64,000 nt of DNA from the sequence record SRR31156797_5453. One strand, given 5' to 3'. Position numbers and translations under genes: made by a program. This document shows, in pieces, positions 20,946 to 63,552 of the stretch. The notes beneath the pieces are model-generated. The model was given only the letters and a program-made list of their open reading frames with translations. It had not been told where the DNA came from and did no database searches. Positions within the stretch are counted from its first letter, which is position 1; every line of letters starts with the position of its first letter.

Positions 20946-21334
20946 ATAGTTGTGGTTTTCGGGTAATTGCGGCATAACTCGATTATGCTGAGGAAAGTCC
21001 ATGCTCGCACAAGCTGAGACGCTTGTAGTGTTCGTGCCTAGCGAAACCATAAGCTAGGGTACTTGAGAAAGTAACGGCAGGAAAAATGGCTAAGGTGCAA
21101 GCTATGCCAAAGTATCCTTGAAAGTGCCACAGTGACGAAGCAAGCCGGGAAACCGTCTTGGTGGAACGCGGTAAACCCCTCGAGCGAGCAACCCAAACAA
21201 TGGTAGGGGCACTTTTTGCACGGAAATGAACGGAGCAAGAAGGCAAGTAATTGCAGATAGATAATTACCCAGTGTTTTCTTCTCCCTGAGGAAAATACGG
21301 ACAAAACATGGCTTATAGAAAATCACAACCTATC
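20946..21334 (+). ncRNA. rnpB: RNase P RNA (B type)
   Basis: GAGGAAAGTCCATGCTCGC, AGTGCCACAGTGACG, GGTAAACCCCTCGAG and ACAAAACATGGCTTA; P1 stem gttgtggttttc / gaaaatcacaac; located between gpsB and ypsC. Confidence 0.96.
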
Positions 21335-30310: not shown

Positions 30311-30339
30311 TTGACTTTTTCGACACATTTCCTTATACT
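30311..30339 (+). promoter_or_regulatory. sigmaA promoter for alaS
   Basis: TTGACT-17 nt-TATACT. Confidence 0.85.
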
Positions 30340-30344
30340 TTGAA

Positions 30345-30562
30345 TGACGAAGGATATGGTCGGTTTGATGATTCATTACAGAAAGTTTTTCACTGCTGAG
30401 AGAAAAACATGAATTCAGACGGATTGCTCCCTTTGGTGCTCAACTGCAGCAGAAATGTTGCCGTCCACTCCGCGTTAACGAGTCTAAGAGGTAATGAGTC
30501 ACATCATTGCAAGCAAGGTGGTACCGCGTATCGACGTCCTTGCTCTGCAATGGTGTTTTTTT
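30345..30562 (+). promoter_or_regulatory. T-box riboswitch (Ala) upstream of alaS
   Basis: GCTGAGA stem I motif; likely specifier GCT at 30426-30428; T-box AAGGTGGTACCGCG at 30515-30528; terminator ending gcaatggtgttttttt. Confidence 0.92.
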
Positions 30563-30658: not shown

Positions 30659-33301
30659 GTGAAACAATTATCCAGTGCAGAAGTACGCCAAATGTTTTTG
30701 GACTTCTTTCAATCAAAAGGTCATTCAATTGAACCAAGTGCGTCCCTTGTCCCAGTCAACGATCCAACCCTATTATGGATCAATTCAGGGGTGGCAACGC
30801 TAAAAAAATATTTTGACGGCAGTGTTGTTCCTGAAAACCCAAGAATGACCAATGCGCAAAAATCAATTCGGACCAACGACATCGAAAACGTTGGGAAAAC
30901 AGCAAGACACCATACGATGTTTGAAATGCTAGGAAACTTTTCGATCGGCGATTATTTCAAAAATGAAGCGATTCATTGGGCATGGGAGTTTTTGACTTCC
31001 CCAGAATGGATGGCTTTTGATCCAGAAAAGTTATATGTCACGGTTTATCCAAAAGACACAGAAGCAAAACGGATCTGGGCAGAAGAAGTCGGCTTGACAC
31101 CAGAGCATATCGTTGAGATTGAAGACAACTTTTGGGACATCGGTGCAGGACCATGTGGACCGGATTCGGAGATTTTCTATGACCGTGGTCCTGAGTTTAA
31201 TGACGTAGCGGAAGATGATCCCGAAAACTATCCTGGTGGCGAAAATGAACGCTATTTGGAAATCTGGAATCTGGTCTTTTCAGAATTCAATCATCAACCA
31301 GATGGCTCCTATGAACCACTACCACATAAAAACATTGATACGGGGATGGGGCTGGAACGAATGGTTTCCATCGTTCAAAATGCACCAACCAATTTTGAAA
31401 CAGACTTGTTTCTGCCGATCATCAATGCAGTGGCAGATTTAAGCGGTCGTGTGAACTACGGCGACAGCAAAACGACAGATATCTCCTTTAAAGTGATTGC
31501 AGACCATATCCGCGCGCTTTCTTTTGCGATCGGCGATGGGGCACTTCCTTCAAATGAAGGCCGTGGCTATGTTTTACGTCGTTTATTACGTCGTGCAGTC
31601 ATGCATGGGAAAAAATTAGGGATCGATGCTGCCTTCTTATACAAATTAGTACCGATCGTTGGCGAGATCATGGAAAGCTACTATCCTGAAGTACTAGAGC
31701 AGCAAGAATTTATTGAAAAAGTGATCCGCAACGAGGAAGAACGTTTCCATGAAACCATCAATGAAGGGTTAGATATTTTAAATCAAGTGATCGCCCAAGT
31801 AAAAGCAGACAACCAAGATACGTTAGCTGGTCAAGATATTTTCAAATTGTATGATACTTACGGCTTCCCAGTTGAATTGACAGAAGAAGTGGCGGAAGAC
31901 GAAGGGTTGAAAGTGGACCATCAAGGGTTTGAACAAGAAATGGATGCACAACGTGCCCGCGCTCGTGCGGCTCGACAAACGGAGCTTTCAATGGGCGTAC
32001 AATCCGCTTTATTGACGGATATCAAAGTAGACAGCCGTTTCGTTGGCTATGATTCACTTGAAGCTAACAGTGAATTATTAGTGATCATCCAAGACGAAGC
32101 GTTACACGATTCTGTTTCGACAGGTGAAGCAAAACTGATTTTTGCTGAAACACCATTTTACGCAGAAATGGGTGGACAAGTTGCGGATACAGGCACGATC
32201 GTAGCAGAAGATGGTACGATCGTAGCGGAAGTGACGGATGTCAAAAAAGCACCGAACGGTCAGTTCTTGCATACTGCTACAGTCAAAGCGCCACTACAAG
32301 AAGGCGTGAACTATTTCTTACAAGTGGATCAGCATCGTCGCAATAAGATTATCAAAAATCATACGGCGACTCACTTATTGCATAAAGCGTTAAAAGAAGT
32401 ATTAGGTAGCCATGCGAACCAAGCAGGTTCATTAGTTGCTCCAGGACATTTGCGCTTTGACTTTAGTCATTTCGGGCAAGTGACCAGCGAAGAACTGAGC
32501 CAAATGGAACAAATCGTCAACCAAAAAATTTGGGAAGCCCTCCCTGTTGTGACGATCGAAACGGATATCGATACCGCAAAAGGCATGGGAGCGATGGCAC
32601 TCTTTGGTGAAAAATATGGGCATGACGTTCGCGTCGTCAATGTTGCCGATTGGTCGATCGAATTATGTGGGGGAACCCATGTGGCAAATACGGAGGATAT
32701 CGGTATTTTCAAAATCGTTTCTGAATCAGGGATCGGTGCTGGTGTTCGTCGGATCGAAGCCGTGACTAGTCAAGAGGCCTATACGTTATTGCATGAAGAA
32801 GAAACGCAATTAAAAGCAATCGCAGGAATTGTTAAATCTGCCCAATTAAAAGAAGTCGTTGCCAAAACAGAACAACTGCAAGCGCAGCTACGTGAATTGC
32901 AAAAAGAAAACGAAGCTCTTGCCAGCAAGTTAGCAAATCAGCAAGCAGGGGATGTTTTCAAAGATGTCAAAGAAGTAAATGGTCTGCGTCTAATCACAGC
33001 GAAAGTGACTGTTAAGGACATGAACCAATTACGTCAACTAGCCGATCAATGGAAACAAAAAGACCATTCTGATATTTTAGTGTTAGCTACCGCGAATGAT
33101 GGCAAAGTGAATCTTTTAGCTGCTATGAACAAAGTAGCCAATGAAAAAGGATTGAAAGCGGGCGATTTGATCAAAGAGATCGCACCTAAAGTTGGTGGCG
33201 GCGGTGGCGGCCGTCCTGATATGGCACAAGCCGGCGGGAAGAATCCTGAAGGAATCACAGCAGCACTTGAGACCGCAGCAGCGTGGTTAGCTGCCAAGTA
33301 A
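30659..33301 (+). CDS. alaS: Alanine--tRNA ligase
   Basis: [56 protein letters not shown]. Confidence 0.98.
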
Positions 33302-58542: not shown

Positions 58543-59118
58543 ATGGAACAAGTTAGGAACTTTGTTCATTACACGAAAGAAAAAACAGTGGAAAGCTGGC
58601 AGGCTTTGTTAGATGATCTATACCGAGATCAGAAAAAAACGATTTTCACGCTGATCGGAGGCATTCTTTTCGCGCTGGTTTTTGCAGGCTTGATCGTTTT
58701 TTCTCAAAATCGCATCAACGCCTCTTTAGTGGATCGAATCGCTTTCGACAAGTTACCTTCGGAAAAAGTACAGCCATTACCATATTTGACAGCTGATAAG
58801 ACGATTCGAGAAACAAGAGCGATTTCTGTGATGTACAGTAAACCAAATGGCCCACAGCTGGATCAAGTGTTTGATCTGATCCAAGCACAGGAAGACGAAA
58901 TGAATCGAACATTTTTTTATTATCCGATCGTCTATGACGTGGCATTTTTCTCCAATGAATATGACATTGATCCTGATAAAGTGACCTTTGTCTTCTATGA
59001 AGAAGGAGTCGAGAAAAATCGCTTTACTTTTGATTCATTTGAGCAGCCAACGACGGAATTCATCCCAGAATTGAATCGTTTACCCATGTGGACGATTCGT
59101 TCTTCTGCCAATGATTGA
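58543..59118 (+). CDS. Membrane-anchored thioredoxin-like protein with no CxxC
   Basis: One TM; ISVMYSKPNG...FFYYPI...YDI..VTFVFYEEGVEKNR follows a thioredoxin-fold pattern; no Cys in the protein. Confidence 0.6.
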   Translation: MEQVRNFVHYTKEKTVESWQALLDDLYRDQKKTIFTLIGGILFALVFAGLIVFSQNRINASLVDRIAFDKLPSEKVQPLPYLTADKTIRETRAISVMYSKPNGPQLDQVFDLIQAQEDEMNRTFFYYPIVYDVAFFSNEYDIDPDKVTFVFYEEGVEKNRFTFDSFEQPTTEFIPELNRLPMWTIRSSAND

Positions 59119-59149
59119 TAAAAAAATCTGACAATTTGACAGAAAATTG

Positions 59150-59178
59150 TTGACGTTTTTTTATCAATAGGCTAAACT
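59150..59178 (+). promoter_or_regulatory. sigmaA promoter for the Trp leader and ABC transporter
   Basis: TTGACG-17 nt-TAAACT. Confidence 0.75.
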
Positions 59179-59222
59179 GAATTCAATCAAGAAAGAAAAC
59201 AAGTTGAGAAGGAGGAACAATC

Positions 59223-59276
59223 ATGAAACTATTTATTCCATTGCAAGTGAAATCATGGCAAAACTGGCGTAGATAG
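59223..59276 (+). CDS. Putative Trp-sensing leader peptide MKLFIPLQVKSWQNWRR (17 aa)
   Basis: AAGGAGG RBS upstream; two TGG codons at 59256 and 59265; stop overlaps an attenuator helix; lies upstream of a TrpX-type transporter. Confidence 0.85.
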   Translation: MKLFIPLQVKSWQNWRR

Positions 59277-59434
59277 TTGTATTGATGGGACCTCATTCCA
59301 TAGATACAACTTTTTAGAGAACCTTCTAAAGTGCTGTATCTATGCTGGTAGTTGAATTTATCGCCGCATAGGACAACCTTCTATGCGGCTTTTGCTTACT
59401 TGCAATTGCCGTCACATAGGCAGTTGCTTTTTTT
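59275..59434 (+). promoter_or_regulatory. Attenuator with alternative helices and two terminators
   Basis: Helix 59275-59290/59296-59311; competing 59299-59308/59335-59344; antiterminator 59339-59349/59363-59372; terminators at 59363-59393 and 59402-59434. Confidence 0.8.
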
Positions 59435-59495
59435 GTTCTCAAAAACCGTAAAAACGAAAACATGAAAAACTTAAGCAGAAAAAGGAGAATGAAAA

Positions 59496-60548
59496 ATGAA
59501 AAACAAGGGATTAATTGCATCGGTTGCCGTTATTTTATTATTTTTAGGAGCGACCTTTGTCTATCAGTTAGGAATGAGAAGTGGGACCAATCAAGCCAGT
59601 GAGACTTCGGAACCAGTAGAAAAAGCTGAAAAAACAGTTGGGATCCTGCAGTTTGTCAGTCATGAAGCGTTAGATGCGATCACCGAGGGGATCAAAGAAG
59701 GCCTTAAAGAATCAGGCTATACCGAAGGGGACAACTTGACGATCGAATTCCAAAACGGCCAAGCGGATCAAAGTAAATTGGCAACGATGAGTCAGCAGCT
59801 GCTAAATAAAGATGCCGACGTTTTGGTTGGGGTAGCAACACCCGCAGCACAAGCGTTGGCGAATGTCACTCAGGATGTACCAATCGTTTTAGGAGCGGTC
59901 ACTGATCCAGTTGGGGCAAATCTCGTGGCAGATATGGATCAACCCGGCGGAAATATCACTGGTGTTTCAGATAAAGCACCCGTCGCTGCGCAAATCAAAC
60001 TAGCAAAAGATTTGCTACCGGAGGCAAAAACAGTCGGCATTTTGTATTCTTCGACCGAAGACAATTCGAAATACCAAGTGGCAGAAGCAGAAGCTGCTGC
60101 CGAAGAAAATGGCTTGACCAGCAAATCGTATGCCGTTCCTTCAAGTAACGAAATTGCTCAAATGGTGCAAGTGATGGCACGAGAAGTCGACTTTATCTAT
60201 ATTCCGTTAGATAATACGATTGCAAACGCAATGCAGACGGTAGTACAAGAAGCCAATAAATCAAAAACGCCCATCATCACGTCTGTTGATACGATGGTGG
60301 AACAAGGCGGCTTAGCAACGGTTGGGCAAGATCAATTTACGATTGGGGTCGAAACCGGGAAGATGGTGGCAGCAATTCTTGACGGGACGGCCGAACCTGC
60401 GACAACGCCGATCTATACATTCAGCGATGGCGAAACGATCATTAATGAAACACAAGCGCAGTTATTGGGAATCACTATCCCAGAAAACCTCAAAGACGAG
60501 GCAAAATTGATTACAACGACACCGGAAAGTGAAGCAAGTGATGAGTAA
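59496..60548 (+). CDS. trpX: ABC transporter substrate-binding protein, TrpX-like (aromatic amino acid)
   Basis: VGILQFVSHEALD, NGQADQS, ATPAAQA, AVTDPV, GGNITGVSD, SSTEDNS, DNTIA; the Trp leader supports Trp specificity. Confidence 0.85.
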   Translation: MKNKGLIASVAVILLFLGATFVYQLGMRSGTNQASETSEPVEKAEKTVGILQFVSHEALDAITEGIKEGLKESGYTEGDNLTIEFQNGQADQSKLATMSQQLLNKDADVLVGVATPAAQALANVTQDVPIVLGAVTDPVGANLVADMDQPGGNITGVSDKAPVAAQIKLAKDLLPEAKTVGILYSSTEDNSKYQVAEAEAAAEENGLTSKSYAVPSSNEIAQMVQVMAREVDFIYIPLDNTIANAMQTVVQEANKSKTPIITSVDTMVEQGGLATVGQDQFTIGVETGKMVAAILDGTAEPATTPIYTFSDGETIINETQAQLLGITIPENLKDEAKLITTTPESEASDE

Positions 60549-60623
60549 CAATTAGGAACAGCAATCACCTGCGATCACCGAGAGAGTCTTGAAAGAGAAA
60601 ACTTGTAAGAATATGGAGGAAGA

Positions 60624-61511
60624 ATGATGATTGTTTCAGCAATAGGGCAAGGGCTACTTTGGGGAATCCTGGGATTAGGGATTTTTATGACCTATCGTAT
60701 TTTGAATTTCCCGGATATGACGACGGAAGGGTCCTTTCCGTTAGGCGGTGCTGTCTGTGTGACAGCGATCACCCATGGGGTGTCGCCCGTCTTAGCGACT
60801 TTGTTAGGAGTATTGGCTGGGATGTGTGCGGGCTGTGTGACAGGACTTCTTTATACAAAAGGCAAAATTCCCGTGATTTTAGCAGGTATTTTGGTGATGT
60901 CTTCATTGAACTCGGTCATGCTGTTTGTGATGCGCTCACCAAACCTCTCTTTATTAAACCAACCGAAAATTCAAGATTTTTTTACTAGAATGAATTTACC
61001 GAATTATTATGATACGGTGATTATCGGATTGATCATGGTCTTGTTGATTGGGGGCGTCTTGGTTTACTTTTTCCATACCAACTTGGGTCAAGCTTATATT
61101 GCTACCGGGGATAATGAACACATGGCCAAGTCAATGGGAATCAATACGGATCGAATGAAAATCATTGGACTGATCGTCTCCAATGGCGTGATCGCACTCT
61201 CAGGCGCATTGATCGCTCAAAACGACGGCTACGCCGACATAAGCAAGGGAATCGGTGTGATCGTTATCGGACTGGCGTCAATCATCATTGGTGAGGTATT
61301 ATATGGTGAATTGACCTTGCTGGAACGTCTGATCGCTATCGTGATCGGCAGCATTATCTACCAATTATTGATACTATTTGTGATCAAAGCTGGATTTGAT
61401 ACGACTTACTTGAAGATCTTCTCTGCAATCGTCTTGACGATCTGCCTGTTGATCCCTCAATTTAAACAAGCCTTGCATCTACGCACTGGTTTTGAAACGG
61501 AGGATGAATAA
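60624..61511 (+). CDS. ABC transporter permease (TrpY-like)
   Basis: RILNFPDMTTEGSFPLG, ATGDN, GVIVIGLASIIIGE. Confidence 0.9.
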   Translation: MMIVSAIGQGLLWGILGLGIFMTYRILNFPDMTTEGSFPLGGAVCVTAITHGVSPVLATLLGVLAGMCAGCVTGLLYTKGKIPVILAGILVMSSLNSVMLFVMRSPNLSLLNQPKIQDFFTRMNLPNYYDTVIIGLIMVLLIGGVLVYFFHTNLGQAYIATGDNEHMAKSMGINTDRMKIIGLIVSNGVIALSGALIAQNDGYADISKGIGVIVIGLASIIIGEVLYGELTLLERLIAIVIGSIIYQLLILFVIKAGFDTTYLKIFSAIVLTICLLIPQFKQALHLRTGFETEDE

Positions 61512-62269
61512 TGTTAGCCTTAAAAAAAGCCTTTAAAGTTGTCGGCAACGGACCGAATGAGAAAAAAGTGCTCTTGAATAAAATCGATCTTTCTTTAAAA
61601 CCAGGAGAATTTGTCACGGTCGTCGGAGGAAATGGCGCCGGCAAAAGTACGCTATTCAACTGCATCTCAGGCACCATGCCCTTGACGAGTGGGCAAGTGA
61701 TGATCGATGATCAAAACGTGACCGCACTTTCGGAAGAAAAACGTGCCCGCTTTTTGGCACGTGTCTTCCAAGACCCGAAAATGGGCACTGCTCCCCGTAT
61801 GACAGTGGCAGAAAATCTGCTGTTAGCACAAAAAAGAGGGCAAAAACGGTCACTTGGTCTTCGACAACTCCAAGGACAAAGGGAAATGTTCTTTGCGCTT
61901 TGTAAAGAAATCGGCAATGGGTTGGAAAATCATTTGGATACGCCAACGGGCAGTTTATCTGGTGGTCAACGACAGGCACTAAGTTTATTGATGGCAACGA
62001 TTCAAACACCAAAACTGTTGTTGCTAGATGAACATACGGCTGCGTTAGACCCAAAGACCTCCAAACAGCTGATGCAAATCACTGCAAGACGCGTGGAAGA
62101 ACAAAACCTAACTTGTCTCATGATCACCCATCGGATGGAAGATGCATTAAAATACGGAGACCGCCTGATCCTGCTCAGAAAAGGGGAAATCGTCAAGGAT
62201 CTTTCAGCAGATGAAAAAGCTCGCTTAAGTTTACCAGAACTGTTACTGTTCTTTGAAGACGACTTATAA
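61511..62269 (+). CDS. ABC transporter ATP-binding protein (TrpZ-like)
   Basis: GGNGAGKST, RVFQDP, LSGGQRQ, LLLDEHTAALDP, ITH. Confidence 0.93.
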   Translation: MLALKKAFKVVGNGPNEKKVLLNKIDLSLKPGEFVTVVGGNGAGKSTLFNCISGTMPLTSGQVMIDDQNVTALSEEKRARFLARVFQDPKMGTAPRMTVAENLLLAQKRGQKRSLGLRQLQGQREMFFALCKEIGNGLENHLDTPTGSLSGGQRQALSLLMATIQTPKLLLLDEHTAALDPKTSKQLMQITARRVEEQNLTCLMITHRMEDALKYGDRLILLRKGEIVKDLSADEKARLSLPELLLFFEDDL

Positions 62270-62334
62270 GCCCTTGATAGAACAGTGTTTTCAAAAAAAA
62301 TAATCAAATAAATGAAAAAAATAAGAAAAAATCA

Positions 62335-62363
62335 TTGACATCTTTCAAAGTTAAACCTATACT
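62335..62363 (+). promoter_or_regulatory. sigmaA promoter of the aro operon
   Basis: TTGACA-17 nt-TATACT. Confidence 0.9.
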
Positions 62364-62398
62364 TAGGTCAATCTTACATCAGTTTGGAGCGAAGGACT

Positions 62399-62464
62399 AT
62401 GCAAAAATTATTGCTAACGAACCCCACACAACTGAATAAATATTACTTTAGCTATTTTAGATAG
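62399..62464 (+). CDS. Putative Tyr/Phe-sensing leader peptide MQKLLLTNPTQLNKYYFSYFR (21 aa)
   Basis: Starts about 30 nt after the inferred transcription start; GGAG and AAGGA upstream; TAT TAC TTT AGC TAT TTT cluster just before AGA TAG; precedes aroE-aroF. Confidence 0.85.
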   Translation: MQKLLLTNPTQLNKYYFSYFR

Positions 62465-62663
62465 GTTTGTATTCATGAAGGCATGGGTACAAACGCTAAG
62501 TTTGTATCTATGATGGCTAGAGCATTTCGTAATGAATTCGCAGCCACGTAGATCGTAAAATCTATAGTGGCTATTTTTTATATTCACATATCGGCGCTGT
62601 CGCTATGTAATGTTTGAAGGTGTTCACTGTAGATTCTTAAATTTACGGTGGACATCTTTTTTT
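62465..62663 (+). promoter_or_regulatory. Attenuator with alternative helices and two terminators
   Basis: Helix 62465-62477/62482-62494; competing 62482-62494/62500-62512; antiterminator 62506-62518/62542-62553; terminators at 62542-62579 and 62617-62663. Confidence 0.85.
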
Positions 62664-62682
62664 GTTGAAAGGAATGAACCAG

Positions 62683-63552
62683 ATGAAACAAATGATAACC
62701 GGTCACACACGGTTGGCGGCACTATTTGCCAAACCAGCCAAACACAGCATCTCTCCAGCGATGCACAATCTTTCTTTTGAAGAACAAGGGATCGACGCCG
62801 TGTATCTGGCCTTTGATGTTGAGCCGGATGATTTAGCCGCTAGTATCCAAAGCATCCGTCAGTTGGATCTCTTAGGTGTCAATCTATCAATGCCCCATAA
62901 AATGGCAGCAGTACCGTTGATGGATGAATGCTCACCAGCAGCCGAGCTGATCGGCGCAATCAATACAATCGTCAATCAAGAGGGGCGATTGATTGGGCAC
63001 AATACAGATGGTATCGGCTTTATGCGCGCACTTGAAGACATTCAAGTGTCGATCATTGGAAAAACGATGACTGTGATCGGTGCAGGTGGAGCAGCGACAG
63101 CAATCATTAGTCAAGCTGCACTAGATGGTGTCAAAACAATCCGTGTCTTTAACCGCAAGGATGAGTTTTATCCAATCATCCAGGAAAAATTGACACAGAT
63201 CGCAGAAAAGACCGCCTCTGAAATCACATTAACGGATTTAGAAGATCAGACGGCTCTAAAAACAGCCATCGATCAAAGCAGTCTTTTAGTTAATGCTACT
63301 GGCGTGGGGATGAAGTCGAATGATACGGTAAGTCCTCTAAAAGACAAAACACTCTTGCGGGAATCATTAGCTGTCTATGATGTCATCTATAATCCAAGAG
63401 AAACGCAGCTTTTGAAAGATGCGAAAGAAGTCGGTGCCAAAACTGCAAACGGCTTAAGCATGTTGCTGTATCAAGGTGCAGCTGCATTTAAACTTTGGAC
63501 AGGCCAAGAAATGCCTGTTGAAAAAGTAAAAGCACTTATTGAGTCCATGTAA
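62683..63552 (+). CDS. aroE: Shikimate dehydrogenase
   Basis: HSISPAMHN, NLSMPHK, GAINTI, NTDGIGF, GAGGAA, NATGVGM, MLLYQG; AAAGGA RBS before ATG 62683. Confidence 0.95.
   Translation: MKQMITGHTRLAALFAKPAKHSISPAMHNLSFEEQGIDAVYLAFDVEPDDLAASIQSIRQLDLLGVNLSMPHKMAAVPLMDECSPAAELIGAINTIVNQEGRLIGHNTDGIGFMRALEDIQVSIIGKTMTVIGAGGAATAIISQAALDGVKTIRVFNRKDEFYPIIQEKLTQIAEKTASEITLTDLEDQTALKTAIDQSSLLVNATGVGMKSNDTVSPLKDKTLLRESLAVYDVIYNPRETQLLKDAKEVGAKTANGLSMLLYQGAAAFKLWTGQEMPVEKVKALIESM

Follow-up and report, generated by a model that had tools for sequence, protein, structure and literature searches.

Predicted leader-peptide attenuators of one Lactobacillales family upstream of the trpXYZ and aroE-aroF genes

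The 64,000-nucleotide stretch SRR31156797_5453 (referred to as the window) carries the genes of the trpXYZ importer and, behind them, aroE and aroF of the aromatic pathway. Each of the two groups is preceded by a leader in which a short upstream open reading frame (uORF) is followed by alternative RNA helices and two terminators. Judged by their sequences, both leaders are very likely ribosome-mediated transcription attenuators of one Lactobacillales family, and the importer and the pathway would most likely be switched on by a shortage of the matching amino acid. The trpX leader and its genes comprise the following features.

59150..59178, plus strand: promoter-like site (TTGACG, 17 nt, TAAACT; 9/12 matches)
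59211..59215, plus strand: Shine-Dalgarno sequence GGAGG of the Trp uORF, 7 nt 5′ of the ATG, read from the sequence
59223..59276, plus strand: Trp leader uORF, 17 codons + TAG, peptide MKLFIPLQVKSWQNWRR-stop
59264..59275, plus strand: segment 0 (last Trp codon, Arg-Arg and stop), partner segment 3
59275..59288, plus strand: segment 1, partner segment 2
59298..59311, plus strand: segment 2, partner segment 1 or 3
59312..59331, plus strand: apical hairpin between segments 2 and 3, the tip of P1 of the Rfam trpB motif, 78% paired
59336..59348, plus strand: segment 3 (antiterminator strand), partner segment 0, 2 or 4
59363..59396, plus strand: terminator 1 (segments 4 and 5), hairpin 59363-59389 followed by a U run
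59402..59434, plus strand: terminator 2, hairpin 59402-59427 followed by a U run; its top can pair with segment 5
59496-60548, plus strand: trpX (TrpX equivalog NF041285, 464 bits vs cut-off 390)
60624-61511, plus strand: trpY, permease
61511-62269, plus strand: trpZ, ATPase

The Trp codons of this uORF are located at 59256-58 and 59265-67 (codons 12 and 15), both within the last 6 codons, and the reading frame ends in Arg-Arg-TAG. The aroE leader is built in the same order.

62335..62363, plus strand: promoter-like site (TTGACA, 17 nt, TATACT; 11/12 matches)
62386..62389, plus strand: Shine-Dalgarno sequence GGAG of the Tyr/Phe uORF, read from the sequence
62399..62464, plus strand: Tyr/Phe leader uORF, 21 codons + TAG, peptide MQKLLLTNPTQLNKYYFSYFR-stop
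62448..62463, plus strand: segment 0, partner 62505-62520; outer stem of the Rfam RF02863 model
62465..62477 and 62482..62494, plus strand: segments 1 and 2, pairing with each other
62500..62520, plus strand: segment 3, pairings 2:3 and 3:4
62542..62579, plus strand: terminator 1 (segments 4 and 5), bulged hairpin 62542-62572 followed by a U run
62616..62663, plus strand: terminator 2 (segments 6 and 7), hairpin 62616-62659; the 5′ arm (62624-62634) and segment 5 (62560-62570) are complementary
62683-63552, plus strand: aroE, shikimate dehydrogenase, directly behind the leader
from 63593, plus strand: aroF, DAHP synthase, of which only the start lies in the window (ends 64000)

The sensor block Y-Y-F-S-Y-F was found at 62441-62458, with three Tyr and two Phe codons within the last 7 codons and the ending Y-Y-F-S-Y-F-R-TAG. 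Terminator 1 of this leader (62542-62572) was overlooked by a simple terminator scan because its stem is bulged. The contigs of four metatranscriptome runs all break at 62441-62477, with short fragments of high depth, as would be expected if this stretch of the leader were repeated elsewhere in the genome.

In the preliminary description of this DNA, which was made from the sequence alone, a promoter, a ribosome binding site (RBS), a 17-codon Trp uORF and tandem terminators had been assigned to the trpX leader, and a promoter, an RBS, a 21-codon Tyr/Phe uORF and a second terminator to the aroE leader; all of them are present at the positions given there. The AGA-TAG ending is likewise common to both uORFs. 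An arm of the form TTGTATT-N-ATG had been placed immediately behind both reading frames, which holds for trpX but not for aroE, where 2 nt intervene. The pattern AGATAGNTTGTAT gave 0 matches because of this difference in spacer length (0 nt in trpX, 2 nt in aroE). The segment-3 10-mer TGTATCTATG, which had been reported for both leaders, was recovered in three copies in the window (0.02 expected by chance), at 59335 and 62503 on the plus strand and at 59299-59308 on the minus strand; the last of these is segment 2 read on the opposite strand.

The conservation of this arrangement was analyzed in a comparative sample built on the nearest genome (G001) and its relatives, using the two Rfam families that match the leaders, RF04312 ("trpB motif") for trpX and RF02863 ("Enterococcus sRNA_2410") for aroE. 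Matches to RF04312 were found in 8/8 genomes of the nearest genus and in 133/134 Enterococcaceae genomes at E<=0.01, 52 of the 134 lying above the cut-off. At the level of the order, 90 of 151 sampled genomes from 7 of 9 families had a match at E<=0.001. In a phylum-wide sample of 151 genomes, which did not include Fusobacteria, only the reference genome matched (0/150 others at E<=1e-4). RF02863 was identified in 130/134 genomes of the family at E<=0.001 (121 above the cut-off), with 1-6 copies per genome. The nearest genome contains three leaders in all, those of trpX and aroE and a third one, of the type F-Y-F-S-Y-F, on another contig in front of a second ABC transporter. The further leaders for which a genome scan had been suggested were not recovered in it: only the three known ones were found, RF02863 had 2 matches at E<=1, and the 10-mer occurred 13 times compared to 7 times in the reversed control.

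A total of 88 RF04312 loci were read (L001-L068 and a deliberately lower-scoring sample, L119-L138). An in-frame uORF with a Shine-Dalgarno sequence and an ATG was present in 85 of them, 83 of the Trp type and 2 of the Tyr/Phe (aro) type; it was found in 66/66 top loci and in all 54 loci above the 59-bit cut-off. The three loci without a uORF (L009, L130 and L137; 37.8-48.3 bits) resemble ordinary gene-end terminators. At four loci (L047, L048, L057, L062) the Trp uORF was ranked second, the longest candidate of the script being another reading frame or a longer start. The 83 uORFs of the trp type span 14-26 codons, and close to their end there are two in-frame Trp codons (67/83) or one. Their N-terminal halves are unrelated between genera and occur in at least eleven lengths, and the frame with the Trp codons is always kept.

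An independent sample was obtained with a 20-mer spanning both Trp codons, which was found in 97 stretches of named genomes. Among the first 80 of these, an in-frame uORF of the same kind was present in 78/78 Firmicute loci, belonging to many Enterococcus species, Vagococcus, Streptococcus agalactiae and three other streptococci, Gemella, Ruoffia, Facklamia and Lapidilactobacillus. The two other matches, one in Halovibrio and one in Streptomyces (L178, L183), have neither a uORF nor the hairpins and were rejected as chance. In S. agalactiae ATCC 13813, S. hyovaginalis and S. pluranimalium (L186, L141, L169) the Trp uORF leader encodes a peptide ending in W-Q-N/S-W-R-R.

The aro type was represented by 51 leaders (the window, L010 and 49 distinct leaders among L069-L118; the uORF of L111 was recognised by eye, outside the pattern match). 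All of them contain a uORF of 17-27 codons, the last 8 of which include 3-5 for Tyr/Phe and none for Trp; the number for Tyr/Phe is 4-5 in every leader except L076, where the stop codon lies further on. The uORFs and their aromatic codons, whose presence in orthologs had been left to be checked, are thus kept across the whole order. The tripeptide Gln-Leu-Asn is encoded 2-4 codons before the sensor block in 50/51 aro-type peptides, with synonymous CTG and TTG codons for Leu. It also occurs in many trp-type peptides; the Trp peptide of the window is without it.

The sensor codons fit the genes that follow. Behind Trp leaders, the first open reading frame (called at 64/66 loci) was TrpX-like in 56 cases, with 39-100% identity to the TrpX of the window, TrpB in 4 cases (TIGR00263 above the cut-off in 3/3 tested) and the TrpY permease in 4 cases, in which trpX had been missed by the reading frame filter. 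Tyr/Phe leaders precede aroE-aroF-aroB, aroC-tyrA or, in 43/50 cases, TrpX paralogues of 39-49% identity, four of which were tested and scored 306-340 bits, under the TrpX cut-off of 390. Some enterococci contain Phe-only leaders (FFFSFFR; L101, L106, L110, L113, L116) or Tyr-only leaders (YYVSYY; L102, L118), and the TrpX-paralogue genes behind these are often without a permease or ATPase of their own. The codons of a leader may therefore predict the substrate of each TrpX paralogue.

The helices were analyzed in an alignment of 64 distinct trp-type leaders (the window and 63 loci; L004 and L034 were removed as duplicates and L002 was left out) and in 48 aro-type leaders, with slid strands (25-57% paired in the trp class) and shuffles as controls. 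In the trp class, helix 1:2 was paired in 90.5% of the cells, with 40 cells changed on both sides compared to 9.3 in shuffles, and terminator 1 (4:5) in 92.5%, with 57 both-side cells compared to 18.9. The 2:3 core helix was paired in 99.8% and both-side changes were clearly enriched. Helix 3:4 was paired in 92.9%. For helix 0:3 the value was 93.2%, compared to 27-48% for slid strands, with a modest 7 both-side cells in 5 pairs. The helices of the aro class were paired in 91.5-99.6% of the cells (0:3 96.1%, 1:2 96.7%, 2:3 92.6%, 3:4 91.5%), and the variable positions of segment 2 are A/G swaps by which the pairing to U is kept in both partners. Between the classes, helix 0:3 co-varies, the 3′ part of segment 3 having changed along with the sensor codons: the average own-class duplexes have -15.4 and -17.5 kcal/mol, the cross-class duplexes -10.7 and -7.6 kcal/mol.

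The scheme of the preliminary description, in which helices 1:2, 2:3 and 3:4 compete with the terminator, was borne out by these data but was incomplete, as the pairing of segment 0 with segment 3 had been missed. The covariation it called for is clear for 1:2, 2:3 and 4:5 in the trp class and weak for 3:4.

A further pairing was found between segment 5 and segment 6. When the next 130 nt were searched for the best duplex partner of segment 5, the 5′ arm of the last terminator came first in 51/51 aro-type leaders. Compared to dinucleotide shuffles, the mean z value was -2.58, with 41/51 leaders below -2; the aroE leader of the window has a z value of -3.08 and a duplex of -12.9 kcal/mol. The two strands vary in a matched fashion between the subtypes. 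In the subtype preceding ABC transporters (L069-L098, including the best sRNA_2410 matches, which are E. faecium-like), hairpin 4:5 has no U run and lies inside an extra long-range stem, so that the distal terminator is the only one and could be reached by the sensor only through this relay. The second terminator is thus present in both leaders as had been described, but it is not a separate add-on, being coupled to the first by the relay at least in the aro class. The corresponding duplex of the trpX leader in the window has -10.1 kcal/mol (z -2.40). Some trpB-linked leaders are without a second terminator, and the relay found no support as a general feature of the trp class, where the mean z value is -0.87.

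From the observed anatomy, conservation and codon-gene match, we infer where the ribosome stands, in what kinetic order the helices fold and how the operons are regulated, as follows. The sensor codons of the uORF, Trp for trpXYZ and Tyr/Phe for aroE-aroF, would control a chain of mutually exclusive helices, 1:2, 2:3, 3:4, 4:5 (terminator 1), 5:6 and 6:7 (terminator 2). When no ribosome is present, helix 0:3 would enclose helix 1:2, both terminators would fold and the operon would be off. Since segment 0 pairs with segment 3, an untranslated leader is predicted to terminate, and "off" would be the default. A ribosome at the stop codon would cover segment 1, leaving segment 2 to pair with segment 3; the terminators would fold and the operon would again be off. 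A ribosome stalled on a hungry sensor codon would cover segment 0 and leave segment 1 free, and helix 1:2 would occupy segment 2. The free segment 3 would then take segment 4, the freed segment 5 would take segment 6, neither terminator would form and the operon would be on.

The spacing agrees with these positions, the sensor codons being located within segment 0 or immediately 5′ of it. The distance from the stop codon to segment 1 is 0-3 nt and that from the last sensor codon to segment 1 is 9-10 nt. A terminating ribosome reaches approximately 12 nt past the A-site codon. With the stop 0-3 nt before segment 1, it would therefore cover this segment, and a ribosome stalled on the last sensor codon would cover segment 0 and end at the foot of helix 1:2. 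The calculated energies of the three states are listed below, the trpX values covering 59249-59396, that is up to terminator 1 and without 5:6 or 6:7.

State A (0:3 and 1:2 with the terminators), the most stable: trpX -46.3 kcal/mol, aroE -61.9 kcal/mol
State B (2:3 with the terminators): trpX -33.4 kcal/mol, aroE -50.9 kcal/mol
State C (1:2 and 3:4, with 5:6 in aroE): trpX -24.1 kcal/mol, aroE -34.0 kcal/mol

Helices 1:2 and 2:3 were found to be near-isoenergetic, with -12.9 vs -11.8 kcal/mol plus the apical hairpin in trp and -15.6 vs -16.7 kcal/mol in aro.

The features by which attenuators are recognised were found in both leaders: a short uORF with Shine-Dalgarno sequence, start and stop, cognate codons near its end, an intrinsic terminator with a competing antiterminator, and genes that make or import the cognate amino acid. 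The earlier proposal that the two leaders are homologous leader-peptide attenuators, with the specificity set by the sensor codons, is supported by this comparison.

Several results weigh against this interpretation. Only one Trp codon is present in 16/83 of the trp-type uORFs, and the related genomes are non-independent samples. The covariation of helix 3:4 is weak in the trp class, 32/500 shuffles reaching the observed score, and in the aro class there are zero both-side changes in 0:3, 2:3 and 3:4, because the strands are almost invariant. Since segment 3 must fit three partners, this near-invariance is to be expected. Only 7/64 of the trp-class leaders had a relay z value below -2. The helices of the "on" state are weaker than the terminators (3:4 -7.4 vs terminator 1 -17.8 kcal/mol; 5:6 -9.3 vs terminator 2 -20.1 kcal/mol), and in equilibrium folding with the ribosome footprints masked the "on" fold was never seen, the result being always 2:3 and terminator 1. 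In classic attenuators the antiterminator helices are likewise weaker than the competing terminators. The "on" state must therefore be a kinetic, co-transcriptional one if it is formed. Furthermore, the uORF is conserved as a nucleotide sequence at its 3′ end, and the conserved WQ and RR residues may therefore be by-products of RNA pairing.

These residues are also the basis of a different explanation, in which Gln-Leu-Asn, W-Q and R-R-stop would pause the ribosome at or near the stop codon on free amino acid, as in a TnaC-like nascent-peptide arrest; segment 1 would be covered and termination would follow. The sign of the regulation would fit, W-Q is almost invariant, and Gln-Leu-Asn is kept in 50/51 aro-type peptides with synonymous Leu codons as well as in many of the trp type. 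The Tyr-only variant, however, ends in YY-stop without Arg and keeps the RNA motif through a one-base change of frame, the Trp peptide of the window has no Gln-Leu-Asn, and the conserved residues overlap the RNA pairing constraints. Arrest of this type as the actual mechanism is considered improbable.

A wider reading of the attenuator can be formulated as a "domino" system. A block of 4-6 codons alone would set the specificity (Trp, Tyr and Phe, Phe, or Tyr), three successive strand exchanges (3:4, then 5:6) would reach the distal terminator, Gln-Leu-Asn, W-Q and R-R-stop would gate or tune the stalling via the nascent chain, and the RNA of approximately 195 nt would act in trans on the aromatic regulon. 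That all four parts hold together is unlikely. There is fairly good support for the codon-block specificity and the strand exchange, whereas the roles of the nascent chain and in trans are no more than possibilities.

The leaders had been put forward as candidates for an undescribed family; as RNAs, they are not uncatalogued. The aroE leader (62448-62638) matches RF02863 with 85.8 bits, above the gathering cut-off of 61, and gave a weak match of 26.4 bits to RF04312 in a permissive search. The trpX leader (59297-59400) matches positions 1-107, the full length, of RF04312 with 50.8 bits (E 2.2e-5), under the cut-off of 59. The RF04312 architecture, a P1 hairpin and an intrinsic terminator before an ABC transporter or trpB, is present in it. 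It is a divergent member of RF04312 by orthology, not by score, since orthologous leaders pass the cut-off in 52/134 genomes of the family. Because of these two matches, the novelty of the RNA itself has to be given up, as the preliminary description had foreseen for the case of an existing Rfam family.

Narunsky et al. (2024; PMC11109978) describe the trpB motif as a strong riboswitch candidate of unknown ligand, two of whose hairpins covary. Its more than 900 representatives belong to Firmicutes and Fusobacteria, and most of them are located upstream of an ABC transporter of the amino-acid type that is uncharacterised. In a metabolite riboswitch, a ligand would stabilise the 2:3 hairpin (P1), the terminator would form and the uORF would be incidental. 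The equilibrium fold, P1 with the terminator, is compatible with this. The same authors leave a protein factor or a classic attenuator possible (PMC11109978), and a riboswitch would give no reason for the constant in-frame uORF, which is present at all 54 loci above the cut-off. In addition, one RNA core is used for Trp, Tyr/Phe, Phe-only and Tyr-only operons that differ in the codons alone, and the conserved bases lie in stems with alternative partners rather than in an unpaired pocket. The riboswitch explanation is therefore regarded as slightly less probable still than peptide arrest.

The trp genes of Firmicutes are commonly under the control of TRAP or T-boxes. An RNA-binding protein similar to TRAP, or uncharged tRNA acting on a degenerate T-box, could accordingly choose between terminator and antiterminator, and trpX of Streptococcus suis is under T-box control according to a published account (PMC9382623). 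In the region 58900-62900, a covariance-model search gave no match to the T-box family RF00230 at E<=10 in either leader, consistent with the earlier statement that neither contains a T-box consensus. At the same threshold and in the same region no Trp_leader or other Rfam leader family was found, the only matches being RF02863, RF04312 and four at chance level. The positive control was alaS of the same window (30659-33298; TIGR00344), upstream of which a full-length T-box match was obtained at 30335-30544 (71.4 bits, E 2e-15). A T-box is approximately 100 nt longer than these leaders, in which Stem I is missing, and neither TRAP nor a T-box explains in-frame uORFs with cognate codons, which makes this alternative very improbable. 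That the terminated leader acts mainly in trans, as a small RNA (sRNA), with its place before aroE being secondary, is equally hard to credit: a stable RNA of approximately 195 nt was detected in E. faecium (PMC5593968) and attenuator-derived sRNAs such as rnTrpL of Sinorhizobium exist (PMC6614838), but the copies, 1-6 per genome, are always found directly 5′ of aromatic amino-acid genes, the RNA is not known to have a target, and such a role would add to attenuation and could coexist with it, not replace it.

Among the other features of the window, the alaS T-box had been called canonical; the match is indeed full-length, but its score is under the Rfam cut-off of 93, and it was overlooked by a scan at the gathering threshold. 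Bacterial RNase P class B RNA was identified at 20955-21320 (340 bits). The open reading frame of 191 aa at 58543-59118, which adjoins the trpX promoter on its upstream side, had no Pfam or NCBIfam match at E<=1e-5, and a terminator-like hairpin (59072-59099) is located within its 3′ end.

In the attenuators of enteric bacteria (E. coli and Salmonella trpL, pheL and hisL), a uORF with cognate codons lets the ribosome choose between helices and an intrinsic terminator, and transcription is off without translation as well as with full translation. The present leaders resemble them in the short cognate-codon uORF, the alternative helices, the intrinsic terminator and the predicted off state at zero and full translation. 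They differ in the host, the Lactobacillales, and have no sequence or Rfam kinship to them at E<=10. In contrast to the enteric leaders, the strand containing the sensor codons (segment 0) itself pairs with the antiterminator strand, with a hairpin enclosed between the two; a second terminator would receive the signal by relay, and a single scaffold serves for Trp, Tyr/Phe, Phe and Tyr. The chain had been described as having one more helix than that of E. coli trpL; this is not new in principle, as the enteric his leader has a chain of six segments.

The trpX leader aligns to all 107 positions of RF04312 and shares its context, an ABC transporter or occasionally trpB; the model, however, begins at segment 2 and therefore includes neither the uORF nor segments 0 and 1. 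In RF02863, the outer stem of the model corresponds to helix 0:3 and the first inner hairpin to 1:2. The catalogue entry for this family is that of a small RNA gene rather than a cis-regulator, and the available part of Sinel et al. (2017; PMC5593968) mentions no uORF or aromatic codons. There, sRNA_2410 is a 195-nt RNA of E. faecium that gave two transcripts on Northern blots, which is the pattern that tandem terminators would give.

The T-box-controlled trpXYZ of S. suis (PMC9382623) is similar in the transporter family and in its induction at low Trp through transcription antitermination, but its sensor is uncharged tRNA binding a T-box; in enterococci and in S. agalactiae, among others, the uORF leader takes the place of the T-box. 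Since other streptococci contain the Trp uORF, the type of sensor would switch within one genus. The His leader peptides of Firmicutes (Naville and Gautheret, 2010, PMC2965389; PMC9413887) are also ribosome-mediated attenuators predicted from comparative evidence. They differ in the amino acid, the narrow taxa and the unrelated RNA, and no paralogous set with exchanged sensors was described for them.

In the literature searched, of which subscription journals were mostly not covered, Narunsky et al. was the only source of the phrase "trpB motif" and Sinel et al. the only one of sRNA_2410; the characteristic endings of the uORF peptides were found in no paper, and no work linking aromatic genes of Enterococcus or S. 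agalactiae to a leader peptide was found. The leader peptides of Firmicutes described in this literature concern histidine. The RNAs are thus already catalogued, and the uORF-based mechanism appears to be new. The family would combine the textbook logic of attenuation with an extra default-off helix and a relay, as a distinct, widespread system of several specificities concealed under two other labels.

If this is true, the trpB motif, an orphan riboswitch candidate with more than 900 published representatives, would leave the hunt for a ligand, and a validated "sRNA" of Enterococcus would be re-labelled as the product of an attenuator. The paralogous leaders with exchanged sensor codons would constitute a natural specificity-swap experiment, and the codons would predict the substrate (Trp, Tyr or Phe) of ABC binding proteins that cannot otherwise be told apart. 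As a compact design principle, the relay that couples a second terminator could be reused in synthetic biology. For the Lactobacillales, leader-peptide attenuation would be common rather than exceptional.

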